Shown: piece by piece, positions 5,042 to 45,486 of the stretch
How the letters are laid out: each line of letters opens with the position of its first letter
How positions within the stretch are numbered: position 1 is the stretch's first letter
IMG/VR virus record: IMGVR_UViG_3300008516_000159
From: a virus
Length of the DNA stretch: 64,000 nucleotides
Direction: 5' to 3' (one strand)
Program-made: the position numbers and the translations under genes
The notes under the pieces: model-generated
The model's input: the letters and a program-made list of their open reading frames with translations, nothing else
The model's database searches: none
Told to the model about the DNA's origin: nothing

Positions 5042-5505
5042 GCTACTACTTACTTCTTCTTGGCTATGTCTTGCATTATCAAACCTACAAGCTTGTGTAT
5101 CCCGTCGTCACGATTATGATACGTATGTCCCTTTGTTGCTTGTTTGTCTTGTCTATCATACCTAACATAATCATATCCGCACAGGTTGTCCTCAATAGTT
5201 AGCACATTTGTACAATCTATAAGCTCGATCAAAGTGCCGTTTACTTCTATTTTTATCGTCATCATTTTTCATTCTTCCTTTGAGAATAGTGCTTCCAATC
5301 TGTTCTGTACACCCTGCGCTTCATCAAAGGTGACACAGTTGAGCATATATGTATCGTGCTCAGCTTGAGCCTTGTAGAACCTTAGTTTTTTACCGAACGT
5401 TTTTTCAATTGCTTCTTCGTTCAACACCGTGTTCATGGGAACCTGTAAAAACACGGTGTTTGTTTTTAGTGATATAAATATTCGCTTTTCCATGCTATTA
5501 TCTAT

Positions 5506-5625
5506 GTCTCAAGCTCTCTCCGGGCACTGCGGTTAGATGTCTCCAATTTAGCTATACCGCACCTCGATCGTGGAGACCGGTTCACGTAAAGAGGTGAGAC
5601 ACGGCGCCCGGACAGAGCTCGAAAC
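5506..5625 (-). ncRNA. Candidate ~120-nt structured RNA, unknown family
   Basis: Long closing stem GAGCTCT-G-TCCGGGCGC / GTGCCCGGA-GAGAGCTT; internal CACCTC/GAGGTG and CGTG/CACG; directly 3' of tRNA-Tyr. Confidence 0.55.
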
Positions 5626-5629
5626 CATG

Positions 5630-5711
5630 TGGGCCGGGGAGGACTCGAACCTCCGAAGTCCGAAGACGTGTGGTTTACAGCCACGTGGAATTGCCACTAT
5701 CCGACCGACCC
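5630..5711 (-). tRNA. tRNA-Tyr(GUA)
   Basis: Loop CTGTAAA; long variable arm. Confidence 0.9.
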
Positions 5712-5861
5712 TTTTGTTTCTTTTACAACTATCGCATAACATTTATCACAAAGACCGTGAGAAATAACCGGTTCCTTGTATTTAGGATTATCCGGCCATT
5801 CTTCTTCGCGGATGTCTTTACCGCATTTACTACACCGTATTATTGCCTTCATATATTATAT

Positions 5862-8479: not shown

Positions 8480-8830
8480 TTATTTCTCTCTAATAGCTTT
8501 CTGCCAAACAATACCGACGAAAATAATAATCGTACCGGCACTAATCAAAATCCAACTTTGTAGTACTTGACTCATTCTTTTTTCCCTGCTAAAACTATTC
8601 TCAAATCTTGCTCAATCATACCGTAAAGCTCATCAATTAATATTTCTCCGAGTTCTCCATATTTCTTTTCCAACTCAGCAACGCCAAGCTCGTTTTCATC
8701 GAGACGCATTGAAGGCTGGTCATCTATAACCAGACATCCCTCTTTGATCTCAAACTTGTATCCTGGAAAATCTTGTTTGAGCCGCGTCAAAATTTCTGCA
8801 TTAAAATCCATATATTATTCCTTTCACCCG

Positions 8831-9277
8831 CTAGGACACTGGTGTGAATCTCCCCTGTTTACTTAGATCCCTCCTTTCATAAGCCCATTTGGAGCGACAG
8901 GATTTCGAACAAAACGTGTTTGTAATTCCTCTTTTCATCCTCTTGCGATGATCTCGCTCTAATCTTTCAAACCGCATGCCGCATTCGTTGCACACGAGAG
9001 TGATTTGTGGAGATTTTCGCGGCCGAGGACGGTTGCGCTTTCTGTGGCTAAAAGCGATATTATCCAAATCAAAGAAAAGTTCGATTGGATCCTTGCTGTG
9101 TAGCCACGGCACCTTATGTTCTATACTCAACTCATCGGCGCCTTCAATCCTCTTTCCGCATCGAAAACAAACATCTTCTCCCAAACGTCGAACCATATTG
9201 AACAACAACATTTTTTTCAGTTTGGAGGCGGCAGTTGTGTGGCTCACACCCAACTGTTCTTTTTTGGAGTCACTCAT
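8831..9277 (-). CDS. HNH endonuclease with C-terminal zinc finger
   Basis: CFRCG, LSIEHK, NIAFSH; CNECG...FCSKSC. Confidence 0.8.
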   Translation of the reverse strand: MSDSKKEQLGVSHTTAASKLKKMLLFNMVRRLGEDVCFRCGKRIEGADELSIEHKVPWLHSKDPIELFFDLDNIAFSHRKRNRPRPRKSPQITLVCNECGMRFERLERDHRKRMKRGITNTFCSKSCRSKWAYERRDLSKQGRFTPVS

Positions 9278-9296: not shown

Positions 9297-9551
9297 AATA
9301 ATAGCTCTCATAACCTGGATTCTGATTAAATCTACATCTATCTCAGCCTTAGACTGGCCCTTGCGAGCTGCCCGCTACCCGCTCATCATGATGCCACTTA
9401 CGCATTAGAGCTGCTTGCGGTCGCACGGTAGATCGCCATAGCGATCTTTATGAGTGGTAAAACGGCTTGTGGCCTCCCACACTAAGTGGACCGTGTCCAG
9501 AGTTTTCTCTACATATTGTGAAATATGCAGCGTAGATCCGGAGCTATTATT
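9297..9551 (-). ncRNA. rnpB: Ribonuclease P RNA (minimal, ~255 nt)
   Basis: P1 AATAATAGCTC/GAGCTATTATT; P2 ATCTACG/TGTAGAT; P3 GCATATT-TCAC-AATATGT; P4 AAC(T)CTGGA/TCCAGGTT in contexts GAGAAAACTCTGGAC and CAGAATCCAGGTTAT. Confidence 0.88.
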
Positions 9552-9623
9552 TAGGCCGAGCGGGATTCGAACCCAGCATTGAGCGGTTATAAGCCGCCGA
9601 GTCTACCATTGACTTACCGGCCC
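9552..9623 (-). tRNA. tRNA-Ile(UAU)
   Basis: GGCGG-CTTATAA-CCGCT; 3' end abuts the RNase P RNA. Confidence 0.88.
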
Positions 9624-9729
9624 GTGCGCTTGGCAAACTTCTCAGCGAGCTTTTCTGTCGCTATTGTTTCTACGTATAGTATACCAAGCAATCCTAAAAT
9701 TGTAAAGGTATTAATTAAAATCTGCATCT

Positions 9730-9903
9730 CTATATCTCCATAGCCGATTCATCGATACAACTAGCACAGAGCCAATGTTTAGTATAATCACCATACATGT
9801 CGGCAGCATATGGATCTTCAGTGTATTCTGCGTTAGGATTGCCACACCTTTCGCAGGGTTTGGATAATAAAAGCTCTTTTGCTTTTTCGGCCTTTTGTTT
9901 CAC
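9730..9903 (-). CDS. AKxLL-CxxC microprotein (57 aa, not in ORF track)
   Basis: GTG start; VKQKAEKAKELLLSKPCERCGNPNA...EDPY...HWLCASC; paralog of the next two ORFs. Confidence 0.75.
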   Translation of the reverse strand: MKQKAEKAKELLLSKPCERCGNPNAEYTEDPYAADMYGDYTKHWLCASCIDESAMEI

Positions 9904-10127
9904 GTGTTAACCCCCTGTGATAACGCGAACCATTTTGAAAGATCTCTGTCTGTTGGAATTGCCACATCTAATTCTTCGAGACAATTGTAGCAAAGCCAAT
10001 GTTTATCATGGTTATCGAACATCTCAGCATCATACGGATCTTCAACGTATATTGCGTCAGCGTTGCCACACCTGTCACAAGGTTTAGATAACAAAAGCTC
10101 TTTTGCTTTTTTGGTCTTTTCTTTCAT
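9900..10127 (-). CDS. AKxLL-CxxC microprotein
   Basis: MKEKTKKAKELLLSKPCDRCGN...HWLCYNC. Confidence 0.8.
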   Translation of the reverse strand: MKEKTKKAKELLLSKPCDRCGNADAIYVEDPYDAEMFDNHDKHWLCYNCLEELDVAIPTDRDLSKWFALSQGVNT

Positions 10128-10138
10128 GACATTATCTA

Positions 10139-10300
10139 TTACGCGTCAACTGAAACACATTTATCACAAAGCCAATGTTTAGTGTGATAACCGTTGGCCA
10201 GAAGAAATGGATCTTCAACTTTCGTAGCGTTAGGGTTGCCACACCTTTCACACGGCTTGGATAATAAAAGCTCTTTTGCTTTTTCGGTTTTTTCTTTCAT
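10139..10300 (-). CDS. AKxLL-CxxC microprotein
   Basis: MKEKTEKAKELLLSKPCERCGN...HWLCDKC; start trimmed to avoid the tRNA. Confidence 0.78.
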   Translation of the reverse strand: MKEKTEKAKELLLSKPCERCGNPNATKVEDPFLLANGYHTKHWLCDKCVSVDA

Positions 10301-10316
10301 GGCATTATCTATGTCT

Positions 10317-10402
10317 CGGAGACGCGGGGATTCGAACCCCGAACCCGCTTCCGCGAGCACCTGTCTTCCAAACAGGCCGACTACCAGTTATCACACGTCT
10401 CC
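10317..10402 (-). tRNA. tRNA-Ser(GGA)
   Basis: CCTGT-TTGGAAG-ACAGG; long variable arm. Confidence 0.9.
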
Positions 10403-10415
10403 CTGTGTCCTTCAT

Positions 10416-10643
10416 TCAGCATCTATTATTGGCTAGCACTATTTCAAGTCTACAGGCTCGACACACACTCAATATGGTACCGTCTTCTAATCGTTCCCAA
10501 CCAAAGTATTTACACATATACCTTCTTGGATAATAATGCCCACATATTTCACACTTGTATTTCCTTCTCCTCATTTTAGCGCACTCTTCACAACAGTACC
10601 TGGATAATAAAAAATCCTTTGCTTTTTTGGTCTTTTTCTTCAC
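10416..10643 (-). CDS. AKxLL-CxxC microprotein
   Basis: KTKKAKDFLLSRYCCEEC...CEICG...CRAC. Confidence 0.72.
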   Translation of the reverse strand: MKKKTKKAKDFLLSRYCCEECAKMRRRKYKCEICGHYYPRRYMCKYFGWERLEDGTILSVCRACRLEIVLANNRC

Positions 10644-15449: not shown

Positions 15450-16469
15450 TTATCCTTCGTATTCCTCATGCTGCTGCGTCACTCTTATAAAAGTGGTACA
15501 CTTGCTGAGTTGTTTCAATGATGGCGCACCAACATAAGTACAGGTTGACCTAAGCCCGCCCAATATTTCTCTAATCGTGTCTATGACACGCCCTTTGTAC
15601 GCCACATCAATGGTCCTCCCTTCTGAGGCACGGTGAGCTTTAGGCCCACCATGGTACCGTTTTTGCGCCGTCTCTGAGGACATGCCATAGAACTTCATAT
15701 TTCCTTGTTCATCAACATTACCACATTCACTATGGCCAGCTAACATACCACCAAGCATAACGAAGTCAGCACCAGCTCCGAAAGCTTTCGCGACATCACC
15801 GGGACATCTGCAACCGCCATCAGATATAATATGTCCTTTCAGGCCGTGGGCCGCATCAGCACATTCAATAATAGCCGAAAGCTGTGGATAACCGACCCCA
15901 GTCTTCAATCTTGTAGTACAAACCGATCCCGAACCGATACCAACCTTGACTATATCAGCACCGGATAAAATCAATTGTTCAGTCATCTCCGCAGTTACAA
16001 CGTTACCGGCTATTATAGTAACTTCAGGAAATCTTTTGCGAGCTTTTTGAACAAAGTCCGCAAAATACTCTCCATAACCGTTAGCCACGTCGATGCATAT
16101 GAACTCCAGGAAATCAGTTGTCAGCTCGCCTATTGCTTCAAATTTATCTAACTCTTCCTCGCGAGCACCTATACTAATCGCTCCGTAATATGGAAAGAAC
16201 ATATGTATGTTTTTTTTCCAATCTTCCAAATTATAATACTTATGTATAGCTGTAAATATATATTGATCTCTGAGAGCAGAGTGCATCTCAAAGCTACCTA
16301 TCGTGTCCATGTTAGATGCCATTATTGGAATGCCTTTCCAATAAAGACCAGAATGTTTAAAATGGTAATCGCGTTCTAAATCTACATCTTTCCTGGATCG
16401 CAATGTACTTCTCTTTGGACGAATCAAAACGTCCTTGAAATCAAGTTTTACGTCATCATCTAATCTCAT
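15450..16469 (-). CDS. guaC: GMP reductase
   Basis: [43 protein letters not shown]. Confidence 0.95.
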
Positions 16470-18556: not shown

Positions 18557-19410
18557 AGCCTGAGACTAGAGCTCTATATGTTAACCCTTTCATTCCCTTA
18601 CGGTTTGGGTGCTATCCAAACCTTAGGAACTTATCCACCGATCCAGGACCGGTAGGTTAACACAGCTGCTTTTTTATACTGGTAGCGGTTCCAGTGTCGC
18701 ACTGAATCACTCGGCTATCTGGGTACCGTCAGCCTTGCGAGCTGTAAAGAGGCGCTAACCTCACCGTGCTCCTTTCAACCAACCTTCCGCCGCCTTGCGA
18801 GCCTTGGAAAGTCCATATTCCCCGAAGGGTACGGAGTTGAGCTGCTTTCATCCAGCACCGGGTCAGTCTTTGCAGATATTCCAACGTATCGGAATCGAAC
18901 CGATCACATTATGCTCCTCAAGGCATACGCTCTACCAAACTGAGCTAACATTGATAAAACGGGTCACCCCGCGGCAACACCGTGCTAACCCACCAGTTTC
19001 ATAGGCTTTTGGCCTACGGAATGCCGGACGGTGCTTGTCTTTCCCTTGCCAGGTACTGAACGGTTTTTCAAGATCGATGTGCTCCCAACGCATACCGTTG
19101 GGCGGATATGCCCACCAACCTATCAAACTGCTATGAGGCGCTCACTTGCGAGGCTCGCACAACATAACTACTGTTCACTCTCCTGTTTGACCGATTTTGG
19201 TTGCAAGTAATCGATTTCCAGTCGAAAGAAATAATGCCAGTGTTACCCACATCATTTCCTGTCCTTGCTCGGCGTCCACACAAGCTCCGCGAGGACCGCG
19301 AAGCCATTGGAGTGTCAGCTTGCTTGAATTGACCATCCGAAGATGGCGACGGTCGCCAACCCGCCTTTACAGTCCTTGCGAACTGCTGTCAATGTCAAGC
19401 CACTATATAC
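18557..19410 (-). ncRNA. Giant ornate ncRNA, GOLLD-like, with embedded tRNA
   Basis: ~850 nt with no credible ORF; many GCAA/UUCG-capped hairpins; boxA-like GTTCTTTGAAA upstream; ends AGTCTCAGGC then a T run. Confidence 0.7.
18880..18954 (-). tRNA. Atypical tRNA (Leu GAG-like) with 8-nt anticodon loop
   Basis: TATGC-CTTGAGGA-GCATA; canonical D and T arms. Confidence 0.75.
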
Positions 19411-24407: not shown

Positions 24408-26219
24408 CTATCTTTTTTTAAGAACATTTGAGGCTTTCGCTTCATCATACCACCATGTATCTATGAAACCCAGAGCATATTTGGGTTGTACTTTAGGCCG
24501 ACCAAACATATCCCAATATGACACTCTATAAACAGTAATGTGCCAGTGAGGTATCACATAATGTCCCCACAAAAGCACCCTGTCTAGCGCGCGGCAAGCC
24601 GTGATAAGCTCTTCTCTTGTCTTAGCGTGGATAACCTTTTCGATCAAACCATCTACCACGGGATCCTCGATACCAATGTAGTTCCCGGAACCGGACAAAT
24701 TTGCTGTATATGAACCCCACATGTTTCTCTGTTCGTTACCTGGAGAATTGCTTTGACCCCAACTACCAACTATCATGTCGAAATCGAAAGCATTTAGCCT
24801 ATTTATATATTGAGAACTATCTACCAATCTAATCTCCATCTCGATACCAACTTTTTCCAGGTTTTGTCTGAACGGCATGCTGATTCTTTCGAAACCAGGA
24901 CTAACCAGGAGGATCTCGAACTTGAACTGTTTTCCATCTTTCATAAGACGGTTTTTATCGTCCAGCACCCAACCGGCCTCTTGTAGTAAAGTCATGGCAT
25001 TTTCGAAATTGTTTCTCATATTTTTTGCGCCGCCAGTAGGAGAACTATATTCTGTTGTGAACACCTCATCTGGTAACTGATCCCTATAAGGCTCTAATAA
25101 CTTTAATTCAGACCTGCTTGGTAAATTGTAACTGGCCAATTCTGAATTAGAGAAATAGCTATGAGTTCTTTCATAGGCACCGTAGAACAACGCCTCGTTT
25201 GTCCACTCGAAGTCAAACAGATATGTCAAAGCCAATCTTACCCGCTTGTCCTTGAACAGGTCGCGACGAATATTGAAAGCGAACGATTGCATGCCTGTTG
25301 GATTTCCATTGGGTAGCTCTTCTTTTATTATGTAGCCTTTCTTGAACATCTTTCCTTCATAGGCTGTTGCCCACACTTTCGAAGTGTTCTCCATTCTGAA
25401 ATCGTATTCGCCAGATTTAAAGGCTTCGACAACCACGGTCTCATCACGGTAATATTCGTATGTTATTGTATCAAAATTGAATGTCCCTTTTCTAACAGGA
25501 ATATTCTCGCCCCAGTAATCTGTCACCCTCTCATATGTAATAGAGCGGCCGGCATTTAACATCAACACCCTGTAAGGGCCGCTTCCAACAGGAAAATCAA
25601 GACTAGTCTTGTCAAACTCGTGCTCGGTGAAATACTTTTTCTGGATAATAGATATCTGACCCATTATCAAGGGAAGCTCTCTGTTTACTTCTCCCTTTTT
25701 GAAGATGAATTTAACCTTGCGATCATTTATTTTAACAGCCTCATTTACGCTAGCGTAGTACATACGGTAAAACGGAGATGCCTTTTTTGACATAAGCATC
25801 TCAAAAGAGAATATAACATCATCAGCAGTGACCGACGTACCGTCGTGCCAACGGGCTTCCTCTCTTAGAGTAAACGCAACCCAGGAGCCGTCCTTGGGGA
25901 CCTCGATGCTTTCGGCCAATAATCCATATACTGAAAATGGCTCGTCATCGGCATTTACAGTCAATGTTTCATATATCAGACCAATACCGGCGGCGGAGTT
26001 GCCCCTTAGGATGAATGGATTGAGGCTGTCAAAAGTGCCGACCGCGGCTAAAGTAATGTCGCCTCCCTTGGGTGCATCTGGATTTACATATTCGAAATGT
26101 TTAAAATCTGCAGGATACTTAAGATCGCCATGCATGGCAAGACCGTGACTTTCGCCGGCGAATATAGGCATGGCGCTCAATAAAAACGCCAAAAAACCAA
26201 CGATACATAATGTTTTCAT
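24408..26219 (-). CDS. ABC transporter family 5 extracellular solute-binding protein (YejA-like)
   Basis: Signal peptide, then HGLAMHGDLKYPADFKHFEYVNPDAPKGG, FDSLNPF, WGQSNSPGNEQ. Confidence 0.92.
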   Translation of the reverse strand: MKTLCIVGFLAFLLSAMPIFAGESHGLAMHGDLKYPADFKHFEYVNPDAPKGGDITLAAVGTFDSLNPFILRGNSAAGIGLIYETLTVNADDEPFSVYGLLAESIEVPKDGSWVAFTLREEARWHDGTSVTADDVIFSFEMLMSKKASPFYRMYYASVNEAVKINDRKVKFIFKKGEVNRELPLIMGQISIIQKKYFTEHEFDKTSLDFPVGSGPYRVLMLNAGRSITYERVTDYWGENIPVRKGTFNFDTITYEYYRDETVVVEAFKSGEYDFRMENTSKVWATAYEGKMFKKGYIIKEELPNGNPTGMQSFAFNIRRDLFKDKRVRLALTYLFDFEWTNEALFYGAYERTHSYFSNSELASYNLPSRSELKLLEPYRDQLPDEVFTTEYSSPTGGAKNMRNNFENAMTLLQEAGWVLDDKNRLMKDGKQFKFEILLVSPGFERISMPFRQNLEKVGIEMEIRLVDSSQYINRLNAFDFDMIVGSWGQSNSPGNEQRNMWGSYTANLSGSGNYIGIEDPVVDGLIEKVIHAKTREELITACRALDRVLLWGHYVIPHWHITVYRVSYWDMFGRPKVQPKYALGFIDTWWYDEAKASNVLKKR

Positions 26220-26748
26220 ATTTTCCCTCATCTTTTCTTGCTCCAATGGTTAACTCGTGAAACACTAAACACAATGGAGCCAAGACATAATATTAACACC
26301 ACAAAACAACAAAAAGGATCTACGCTGTTGAACCTTGCTTCAATATTTAATATGACGAACACGATCAACCATGGGAAAAACAAAAGGAGTGTGTTACAAA
26401 ATTTTCTGTAGCTGCTCAGACCATCGTACCATATGTTATATTTCTGAAAGAATTTTTTAATTGTCAACGGTAACTACCTTCATTTGCCGACCAATACAAT
26501 TCTATACCAAGAATTCGAGCTCTTGTGTCCGCACATTCAGGGCAGAGCAGGCCAGCTTCACCTTCTTTGGGTGTTATTATTTTCCATACTTCATCAGGTA
26601 CAAGGTAGACTGTTTCATATGCTTTGCCACAAACCTGACAATGTTCCATAGTACCTAAAGAGTCCTCATCCAAAGTTGTTCCATCCCATTGATCCATCAG
26701 CCTAACAAGTTTTTCCTTCTTGACATTTAGCTAGTTTCATCTAACTAG

Positions 26749-31463: not shown

Positions 31464-32219
31464 CTATCTATAAAGAGTAAGTATATCGGGTTCACCATCT
31501 CGCACCAATATGGTGTGTTCAAAATGGGCTGATGGTGTGCCGTCCTTTGTGACAACCGTCCACTTGTCGTCGCTGACATACACTTCATACCCACCAACAT
31601 TCACCATTGGTTCAATGGCGAGTGTCATCCCTGCGCGCAAACGCGGCCCTTTGCCCGGTACTGGTGCTTTAAAGTTGGGTATGCGAGGCTCCTCGTGCAA
31701 TCTCTTACCAACACCATGCCCAACAAAATCGCGAACTATTGAAAATCCATCACCTTCCACCACGTTTTGAACAGCCCGAGATATATCGGCCACATGATTG
31801 TGGTGAACCGCTTTTTCTATTCCCGCATAAAGAGCACGCTCTGTCGTTTCCAGAAGCTTTCTCTTTACCTCTGATATGCGACCGACAGGGATAGTAACGG
31901 CTGCATCACCAAAATACCCGGCCGTGTTCACTCCCACGTCAACACTCAGTATATCGCCTTCTTGCAGCCTGTACACACCCGGTATGCCATGAATAACCTC
32001 TTCGTTGATCGACGAACAGATTGTAGCCGGGAACCCTTTGTAATTCTTAAAGGCCGGTATTGCACCACGTTTCTCTATAAACGCTTCCGCCTTTTTATCT
32101 AGCCATTCCGTGGTAACGCCGATTTTTACAATCTCTCTCAAATACTCAAGCAGTTCGGCAATGATCCTGCAGGACTGTCTGATATACTTAAGCTCTGTCT
32201 CGTTCTTCAACTCGTGCAT
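31464..32219 (-). CDS. map: Methionine aminopeptidase type I
   Basis: CSSINEEVIHGIP, DVG...YFGDAA, GHGVG..LHEEP, AIEPM, SAHFEHT; start trimmed to avoid the tRNA. Confidence 0.95.
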   Translation of the reverse strand: MHELKNETELKYIRQSCRIIAELLEYLREIVKIGVTTEWLDKKAEAFIEKRGAIPAFKNYKGFPATICSSINEEVIHGIPGVYRLQEGDILSVDVGVNTAGYFGDAAVTIPVGRISEVKRKLLETTERALYAGIEKAVHHNHVADISRAVQNVVEGDGFSIVRDFVGHGVGKRLHEEPRIPNFKAPVPGKGPRLRAGMTLAIEPMVNVGGYEVYVSDDKWTVVTKDGTPSAHFEHTILVRDGEPDILTLYR

Positions 32220-32252
32220 CCTGCTCTGTATATATGCTTCGCGAAAATTAAT

Positions 32253-32324
32253 TAGCCCGTAGGGGAATCGAACCCCTATCATCAGGTTGAAGGCCTGGCG
32301 AACTGACCATTATTCGAACGGGCC
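32253..32324 (-). tRNA. tRNA-Glu(UUC), C33
   Basis: CAGG-CCTTCAA-CCTG. Confidence 0.88.
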
Positions 32325-44169: not shown

Positions 44170-45486
44170 TTAATCCACTCTTTTAAGCCGCGCTAAAAAA
44201 TGTCTTAATGTTGGAGGACTCGATACAATCTTGAGACCTTTTATTTCGTGCCGCCTCTTGAAAACTTTTTGAACCGCATCAGCAACATAATCCATATGGC
44301 GGTCCGTATAAACTCTCCTTGGAATGGCCAACCTAAGCAGTTCTGTGTTTGTGTTTTCAAAAGCAAGATTCCCCAACCCAACACCTCTTACTCCTGATTC
44401 TATATACAACTCTACAGCCAGAGCTTCAGCAGGAAACTGCTCTCGGGGAATGTGGGTAAAAAACGAAACGGCATCTATGAAAACAGCATGACCTCCAACT
44501 ATAGTTTTAATGCCCACGCTATCTAATCGGTCTCCTAAATATTCGACTTGTCTTACTCGGTCTGCTATATAATCATCGCCCGTCATCTCTTTTAATCCAA
44601 CTGATATTGCCTCAATATCGCGACCAGACATGCCACCATAACTAACGAAGCCTTCGTATAATATCAAGTTAGGCAAGATTTTTTCATAGAGATTTTTATC
44701 TCTCAAAGCGATGAGTCCGCCCATGGATACAATAGCGTCTTTCTTTAAACTAAAGGTACATCCATCTGCGTAAGAGAATTGCTCTTTTATAATTTGCGCT
44801 ATCGTTTTGTCGTTATATTCTCTTTGTTGAACAAAGTAAGCGTTTTCTGCGCATCGAGCAGCATCAAAGAAAACAGGTAGGTTATATTTATCGGCAATAT
44901 TTCTTACTGCGCGCATATTTTGTATTGAAACTGGCCGCCCGCCTCCACTATTATTGGTAATCGTAAGCATAATGAATGGAATTCTGATCGTCTCATAAAA
45001 ATTTATCGTTTGTTCTAACTTGTTTATATCGACATTGCCCCTGAAGGGGTGATTGTCTTCACAATCAATCAAGCAGCTTTTAAAGCTAGCACCAGCGTTC
45101 GCTATGTGTGCAGCTGTTGTATCGAAAGGCTGGTTAAAAAGTATTACATCTCCTTTGTTTACTAAAGCTTTAAAAAGCAGGTGCTCTGCCGCTCGACCTT
45201 GATGACATGGAATTGTGTATTCAAAACCGAGCGTTTCCATAACTACTTTTTTGAGTTTTTCAAAGCTTCGAGATCCTGCATATGATTCGTCTCCGAGCAT
45301 CATTGCGCTCCACTGTCGATCTGACATGGCATTTGTTCCGCTGTCGGTTAAAAGATCGATATAGACATCATCAGATTTCAAGTTAAAGACATTATAATGG
45401 GCTTTTACGATTGCTGCTATTCTTTCGCTTTTGCTCACTAATTTGATGGGCTCTATTACTTTAATCTTCCAGGGTTCTGGTAACAT
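44170..45486 (-). CDS. tnaA: Tryptophanase-like PLP beta-eliminating lyase
   Basis: IDLLTDSGT, GDESYAGS, SLKKD PLP lysine; FDTT and LRHF match tryptophanase rather than tyrosine phenol-lyase (FTTT, LRFF). Confidence 0.85.
   Translation of the reverse strand: MLPEPWKIKVIEPIKLVSKSERIAAIVKAHYNVFNLKSDDVYIDLLTDSGTNAMSDRQWSAMMLGDESYAGSRSFEKLKKVVMETLGFEYTIPCHQGRAAEHLLFKALVNKGDVILFNQPFDTTAAHIANAGASFKSCLIDCEDNHPFRGNVDINKLEQTINFYETIRIPFIMLTITNNSGGGRPVSIQNMRAVRNIADKYNLPVFFDAARCAENAYFVQQREYNDKTIAQIIKEQFSYADGCTFSLKKDAIVSMGGLIALRDKNLYEKILPNLILYEGFVSYGGMSGRDIEAISVGLKEMTGDDYIADRVRQVEYLGDRLDSVGIKTIVGGHAVFIDAVSFFTHIPREQFPAEALAVELYIESGVRGVGLGNLAFENTNTELLRLAIPRRVYTDRHMDYVADAVQKVFKRRHEIKGLKIVSSPPTLRHFLARLKRVD

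Follow-up and report, generated by a model that had tools for sequence, protein, structure and literature searches.

The stretch of DNA analysed here (64 kb, hereafter the window) belongs to a large, uncultured, T4-like phage. Encoded in it are a T4 baseplate protein, a UvsX/RecA-like protein and SbcCD proteins resembling gp46/gp47; the best matches of its proteins in known phages are less than 30% identical. ARAGORN detects 37 tRNA genes in the window, all on the minus strand (37/37). The 3' CCA is encoded by none of them (0/37), so that every tRNA of the phage must have its trailer removed and CCA added, and no CCA-adding enzyme was found among the Pfam matches of the window ORFs (searched as two sets, 316-31369 and 31464-63733). 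The part of the tRNA island that concerns us contains the following features, in the direction of reading:

9678..9706, minus strand: promoter-like site TTTACA-17-TGnTATACT, about 50 nt upstream of tRNA-Ile(UAU), identified as a consensus match only.
9552..9623, minus strand: tRNA-Ile(UAU), directly upstream of the RNA, CCA not encoded.
9297..9551, minus strand, read from 9551 to 9297: RNase P-like RNA gene of 255 nt, indicated by fold stability and family profiles.
8831..9277, minus strand: HNH endonuclease ORF, which begins 20 nt past the RNA and is missing here in the ortholog locus.

Seven promoter-like sites were found in the region, where 5.0 ± 2.5 were expected. An earlier note, made by inspection of the sequence, had proposed a phage-encoded minimal RNase P ribozyme at this place, starting immediately after a tRNA gene, and the element does start at the base that follows the discriminator A (9552) of tRNA-Ile(UAU). 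The longest open frame inside this non-coding RNA is at most 42 aa. Its minimum free energy is −84.5 kcal/mol (z = −3.2) and none of 200 shuffled sequences was as stable. The helices and joiners of the catalytic domain could be assigned by hand as follows:

9541..9551, minus strand: P1 5' strand AAUAAUAGCUC, pairing with 9297-9307 through 11 Watson-Crick pairs.
9531..9537, minus strand: P2 5' strand AUCUACG, 7/7 pairs with UGUAGAU at 9330-9336.
9509..9530, minus strand: P3 hairpin of 9 bp with loop UCAC, from the fold and from per-sequence reading.
9496..9509, minus strand: J3/4 GAGAA and P4 5' strand AAC-U-CUGGA with its bulged U, the P4 strand occupying 9504-9496.
9490..9495, minus strand: P5 5' strand CACGGU, pairing with ACCGUG at 9424-9429.
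9483..9489, minus strand: 5' strand CCACUUA of the P6 pseudoknot, pairing with UAAGUGG in the P17 loop at 9394-9400.
9421..9429, minus strand: P5 3' strand and J5/15 CGA, with G at the position of E. coli A248 and A at that of A249.
9372..9420, minus strand: P15 CCGC/GCGG, J15/16 AAGCA, P16 GCUC/GAGC, P17 AUGC/GCAU and L15 GGGUA, from covariation and the Rfam map of relative L213.
9320..9343, minus strand: J18/2 AGAUAGAUG, P2 3' strand UGUAGAU and J2/4 UUAAUCAGAA, matching the RF00010 consensus AGAugAAUG ... ACAGAA.
9312..9319, minus strand: P4 3' strand UCCAGGUU, then AU; 8/8 positions pair with AAC-U-CUGGA.
9297..9307, minus strand: P1 3' strand GAGCUAUUAUU, pairing with 9541-9551.

The four helices listed in the earlier note (P1, P2, P3 and P4) are thus all present at these coordinates on the minus strand. 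With the P6 pseudoknot, which is added to that list, the hand-built model amounts to a complete type-A catalytic domain, comprising P1-P5, P6, P15-P17 and the joiners J3/4, J5/15, J18/2 and J2/4. The 3' strand of P2 follows directly on J18/2, which is the type-A arrangement (reference J18/2 AGAUGAAUG). The joiners flanking P4 read GAGAAA for J3/4 (one G to A change with respect to GAGGAAA) and UCAGAA for J2/4 (as against ACAGAA); the deviating A of J3/4 in the window element is a G in all relatives described below. In type-A enzymes the GGU of L15 binds the 3' CCA of the tRNA (RCCA), and the J5/15 purines, A248 and A249 in E. coli, adjoin the cleavage site. Across the family the last A of J5/15 (A249 equivalent) is invariant, and its middle base (A248 equivalent) is A or G, G being the choice in the window. 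To our knowledge, the bulged U of P4 is universally conserved; in the syntenic ortholog (L091, see below) the P4 5' strand is AAC-A-CCGAA, where the bulge is an A instead of a U.

The remaining segments are where the element departs from a cellular RNase P RNA:

9454..9480, minus strand: stub, a 4-bp stem GUGG/CCAC around the hairpin GGC-CACAA-GCC, found de novo by RNAalifold, 3/4 pairs compensated.
9431..9446, minus strand: extra hairpin GAUCGC-UAUG-GCGAUC between the stub and the P5 3' strand, from sequence and fold.
9344..9368, minus strand: two small hairpins, GCUC-GCAA-GGGC (GNRA loop) and CAGUC-UAA-GGCUG (at the P18 position), from sequence and alignment.

Only about 60 nt separate the two strands of P5, and they hold the 4-bp stem, one small hairpin and the extra hairpin. 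Approximately 140 positions of the RF00010 model, corresponding to P7-P14 and the elbow-binding module, are replaced by this 60-nt stub; a specificity domain as modelled there is absent, and with it the module that reads the T-loop/D-loop elbow. The 4-bp stem may, by its position, be P7. The stub motif of the clade described below, GUGGGAG ... UACCAC, is present in the element at 9480-9474 and 9459-9454. As for the extra hairpin, it is missing in L091, and an insert of hairpin size occupies the same place in L213, L192, L194 and L190. The two hairpins that follow P15 exist in the window, L091, L095 and L191 and are missing from the other members. The register of the P18-position hairpin was picked by homology (CAG...CUG, common to L091, L095 and L191), and this replaced a GGCC/GGCU register for the same hairpin. 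Another candidate, a local hairpin CCAC/GUGG at 9489-9477, was discarded: it is unsupported by L102 and L171, its 5' segment forms P6 and its GUGG pairs with the downstream CCAC.

The earlier note had proposed an Rfam cmsearch as a check, and this gave no RNase P family match for the window element: none at the gathering threshold over the window, and none at E ≤ 10 on slices of 551 and 267 nt. RF00011 matched neither the window nor its clade, and RF02357 did not match the element. The gathering threshold (100 bits) is not reached in this group, the relatives from the clade scoring 43–75 bits. Because the window element is without an Rfam match, homology to RNase P RNA must be traced through intermediates. 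A blastn search with the element as query had no match among 50,697 phage records, and an exact 15-mer of the P4 5' strand had 57 matches in IMG/VR, all due to chance and none accompanied by the partner motif. Relatives were collected by motif-pattern scans of IMG/VR and of JGI metagenomes, filtered for P4 complementarity; since the patterns were taken from the element, the conservation of J18/2, J2/4 and P4 among these relatives is partly by construction.

The RNase P RNAs that the scans yielded from phage tRNA arrays form a graded series. At its upper end are near-full-length copies above the Rfam gathering score, namely L059 (143 bits), L062, L074, L114 and, of type B, L156. The clade of the window has at least 18 members, found on phage and metagenome contigs, of 200–283 nt and with the same architecture. 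Nine of them match RF00010 (RF00373 in the case of L190) over the full model, below the gathering score, with E values from 4e-10 to 8e-21. A nucleotide profile of these nine Rfam-supported relatives has a sole match in the window, at 9547-9306 on the minus strand (E = 1.8e-25, 83.5 bits), and a second family profile gives E = 9.4e-23 on the element. Clade members left out of the nine-member profile score 53.6 to 92.3 bits against it (L091 84.5, L171 88.1, L179 89.5), a range within which the window copy falls; phage copies bearing a specificity domain score about 44 bits and full-length copies of the cellular type about 20 bits. In the alignment of L213 with RF00010 made by Rfam, the labelled elements are those of our hand assignment in the window: in this relative 140 specificity-domain positions are reduced to 66 nt, and P18 is also reduced to a short insert. 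The window copy has no close relative, being 65–75% identical to the other members over aligned columns.

Even smaller RNase P-like RNAs adjoin tRNAs in two other phage contigs, of 46 kb and 328 kb: L077 (9729-9875 (+), 147 nt) and L129 (8982-9135 (+), 154 nt). Both comprise P1, P2, a P3 of 3 bp, P4, P15 and an L15 with the sequence GGGUAG, without a specificity domain, and they score 37–38 bits against the clade profile (E about 1e-10). A scan of genome contigs with the stub motif gave at least 120 loci; among the matches listed, the sole real family member is L284 (5352-5573 (+)), which is of the L209/L207 subtype and lies, with no tRNA within 8 kb, on a 22-kb contig of the MAG 'Deltaproteobacteria bacterium OFTM19'. 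This contig may derive from a phage and be mis-binned, or it may represent a prophage.

To assess covariation, 16 clade members were aligned by plain MAFFT and the window structure was projected onto the alignment (L213, L209 and L207 were left out of the statistics). Cells expected to be paired are so in 78.9% of cases, as against 62% in column shuffles (0 of 500 shuffles reach 78.9%), and the proportion drops to 36–41% when partners are slid by 1–3 columns. P15, P16 and P17, which played no part in finding the relatives, are paired at 100%, 93% and 82%, respectively, over the 16 sequences, with compensatory changes at 12/12 pairs. P4 is 98% paired over the same sequences and 5/8 of its pairs covary; pairing of P4 was partly a selection criterion, so its conservation counts for less. 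In P5 the first four pairs are kept in 16/16 sequences and 4/6 pairs covary. RNAalifold, run without an input structure, recovered P4, the stub stem, P15, P16 and P17, with 18/22 pairs compensated.

The 5' end was misaligned by MAFFT, hence P1-P3 were read sequence by sequence. P1 is a helix of 8–15 bp with unrelated sequences in 14/16 members (automatic reading gave 4 bp in L172 and none in L202), P2 has 7/7 pairs in 15/16 members, anchored right after J18/2, and P3 is a hairpin of variable length in all relatives. A P6 helix of 5–9 bp is found at the homologous place in 15/16 members, in at least 10 different sequences (CUGCUC/GAGCAG, CCGCUU/AAGCGG, AACAACA/UGUUGUU and others); in each member taken singly it is modestly above shuffles (p = 0.004–0.3), and its weight comes from recurrence at one place. 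Covariation in P1-P4 among homologs, another check named in the earlier note, is therefore present. That note had regarded the lack of an Infernal hit together with the lack of covariation as fatal to its reading; the former holds for the window copy, close relatives of which do have significant matches, and the latter is false.

A parallel in gene order is provided by an IMG/VR contig of 189 kb (G004, locus L091), whose UvsX homolog is 63–78% identical to that of the window. Both have, in the same local order, tRNA-Ile(UAU), the RNase P-like RNA, an 80-aa ORF (homologous to ORF 8572-8811 of the window), tRNA-Ile(GAU) and the tRNAs for Lys, Phe and Val, after which the order Tyr, Lys, Arg, Leu is also common to both. 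The two RNAs align end to end, and paired changes, read by eye from the alignment, distinguish them in P1 (all 11 pairs), P2, P3, P4, P5 and P15. The RNA gene has thus been inherited and kept by selection as a part of the tRNA island of the lineage. No HNH gene follows the RNA in L091, so that the one at 8831-9277 is a later insertion in the window. In the same contig, the UvsX/RecA homolog (C1 57550-59309) matches the window protein in two pieces about 480 nt apart; an intron, an intein or the insertion of an endonuclease gene could explain the gap.

Taken with the anatomy, the transitive homology, the covariation and the syntenic ortholog support the identification, made in the earlier note, of a phage-borne, size-reduced RNase P RNA (255 nt) with a cut-down specificity domain. 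A resemblance arising by chance in an unrelated structured RNA or a tRNA-array spacer, for which the lack of a direct Rfam match might be invoked, is for practical purposes refuted by the E value of 1.8e-25 with the profile of Rfam-supported relatives, the element-by-element match to RF00010 via L213 and the covariation of P6 and P15-P17 in the type-A arrangement.

The next question is what such an RNA might do, and with which protein. As the earlier note had said, the window contains no rnpA: 0/97 ORFs of at least 85 aa match PF00825 and the RNR motif occurs in no open frame. PF00825 was also without a match in five related large phage records (156–329 kb; three of them at least 90% complete), and the control search was positive in 10 known bacteria. 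The phage may encode a protein partner outside the 64 kb covered. With regard to the ends of the RNA, a mini RNase P RNA in another contig (L202, 7772-8165) has a tRNA gene on either side, at distances of 0 and 1 nt. This arrangement, and the abutment of the window RNA on a tRNA discriminator, indicate that the ends of these RNAs are probably made by tRNA end-processing; given a downstream tRNA at 0–1 nt, as in L202, cleavage by RNase P there would create the 3' end of the ribozyme itself.

[quoted passage not shown] From the tRNAs without CCA, the abutting ends, the promoter-like site, the absence of rnpA and these biochemical data, we infer an active enzyme that borrows host RnpA. We consider it likely that the phage has here a gene for a size-reduced RNase P RNA of bacterial type A, active with host RnpA on phage pre-tRNAs. 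Transcription, end formation, partnership with RnpA and catalysis are all predicted here from sequence. The RNA would be transcribed from the minus strand together with tRNA-Ile(UAU), and removal of the tRNA 3' trailer at the tRNA/RNA junction would free its 5' end. It would then fold into the complete catalytic domain, with P1-P5, P6, P15-P17 carrying the CCA-binding GGU loop, and the hairpin at the P18 position. Its most likely mode of action would be to pair with host RnpA and to cleave the 5' leaders of the 37 CCA-less pre-tRNAs of the phage, recognizing its substrates by acceptor end and leader only. The earlier note had suggested that the RNA processes phage tRNAs, either alone or with the host protein, and the lack of rnpA in the window and the five records agrees with this. 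Counted against our reading are the lack of a direct Rfam match, the J3/4 sequence GAGAAA instead of GAGGAA, the G at the A248 position, the missing T-loop-binding module and the rebuilt P18. We hold it an even call whether this T4-like lineage has a working domain-stripped ribozyme, freed by tRNA processing, that matures its CCA-less tRNAs without recognizing their elbow, with host RnpA or alone.

The same deviations can be read differently. The element may be a descendant of RNase P RNA that does not cleave tRNA and serves as a decoy or regulator, for example by soaking up RnpA or by binding the acceptor ends of pre-tRNAs, so that host tRNA maturation would be redirected during infection. 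The regions that contact RnpA (P2, P3, J18/2 and J2/4) and the CCA-binding loop are indeed kept, the elbow-reading domain is lost, two core bases deviate, and a phage rnpA was found neither in the window nor in the five related records. However, a decoy has no need of P4 with its bulged U, of J3/4, of J2/4 or of the invariant A of J5/15, which are selected across at least 18 divergent sequences, and isolated catalytic domains are known to have activity (PMC11143913). We regard this explanation as unlikely. Still less probable, and disfavoured, is that a host rnpB was captured and that the element is what its decay has left in the tRNA island, without a function. A length below that of cellular RNase P RNA, the lack of an Rfam match and the adjoining HNH endonuclease gene would all suit a remnant, but decay would break pairs at random, whereas here all helices are intact, the substitutions relative to the ortholog and to 14 other members are compensatory, and the same reduced architecture recurs in many phages.

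An RNase P RNA borrowing host RnpA, as we propose, can be placed among the known systems. Like type-A RNase P RNA (E. coli M1 RNA/rnpB, RF00010), it has P1-P5, P6 (J5/7 with the P17 loop), P15-P17, a GGGUA loop, the joiners J3/4, J18/2 and J2/4 and a J5/15 that keeps the A249 equivalent, and its relatives align to the full RF00010 model. It differs from type A in its length (255 nt against about 330–400), its 60-nt stub and rebuilt P18, its location in a phage tRNA array, its position below Rfam detection, and in having GAGAAA as J3/4 and G at the A248 position. Unlike type B (RF00011, with P5.1, P10.1 and P15.1 and without P6, P16 and P17), it does possess P6, P16 and P17. The type-T RNase P RNA of Pyrobaculum and relatives (RF02357) is also natural, about 200 nt long and deprived of most of the specificity domain; this is archaeal and chromosomal and works with archaeal proteins, unlike the phage RNA, which is of bacterial type-A descent. 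With other phage-borne RNase P RNAs the element shares its setting in tRNA arrays, and the window copy has the extra hairpin and the two hairpins after P15, which are missing from many members. In having a catalytic domain without a working specificity domain it resembles the engineered catalytic-domain-only or 'mini' bacterial RNAs (PMC11143913). These are laboratory deletions, unlike the phage gene, which is natural, conserved and endowed with its own replacement stub and extra hairpins.

No paper describing a phage-encoded RNase P RNA was found in the full-text literature, a coverage that leaves out most subscription journals, and in a 2024 review 'phage-encoded' is applied to tRNAs only (PMC11143913). 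The element is an RNase P RNA by descent and core architecture; what is new in it is that it is viral, stripped of a domain and below database detection. RNase P trims new tRNAs, and its RNA is regarded as a housekeeping ribozyme of all cells; with a conserved viral copy, the translation-related functions brought by large phages would come to include a ribozyme. It would also be the natural counterpart of the deletion made by biochemists, a catalytic domain with almost no specificity domain selected in many phages. Several matters would become directly testable: the amount of RNA that RNase P activity requires, the part played by the S-domain in vivo and the ability of host RnpA to serve a foreign RNA. 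If our reading is true, the tRNA supply of the phage would be independent of host RNase P RNA, and this would be the first virus-encoded tRNA-processing ribozyme as well as a natural test of the minimal bacterial RNase P RNA. Because Rfam does not detect these RNAs, they go unnoticed in the annotation of phages by pipelines, and they need a covariance model of their own.

Several other features of the window deserve mention. The same tRNA island contains a GOLLD RNA (RF02032, 155.7 bits) at 18557-19036 (-), in which a tRNA-like gene with a 4-base anticodon (tgag) is embedded at 18880-18954. A metagenome contig (L194) also has a GOLLD RNA (5302-5729 (+), 162.7 bits) and a mini RNase P RNA among its tRNAs; the two RNAs are thus found together in at least two phages. 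Just upstream of tRNA-Ile(UAU), at 9730-10643 (-), four paralogous ORFs of 57–75 aa are interleaved with tRNA genes and have in common the zinc-ribbon-like motif KAKELLLSKPCxRCGN ... HWLC..C. Similar ORFs are present in L091, at 1722-1865 and 2174-2461. Among the Pfam matches of the window ORFs are a Tad6 Thoeris inhibitor (E = 2e-41), RNase HII, two PD-(D/E)XK endonucleases, several HNH endonucleases, a methionine aminopeptidase (31464-32282), a peptide deformylase, a Dam-type methylase, a GMP reductase/IMPDH-like protein (15450-16469), a periplasmic solute-binding protein (24408-26246) and a tryptophanase-like lyase (44170-45486).
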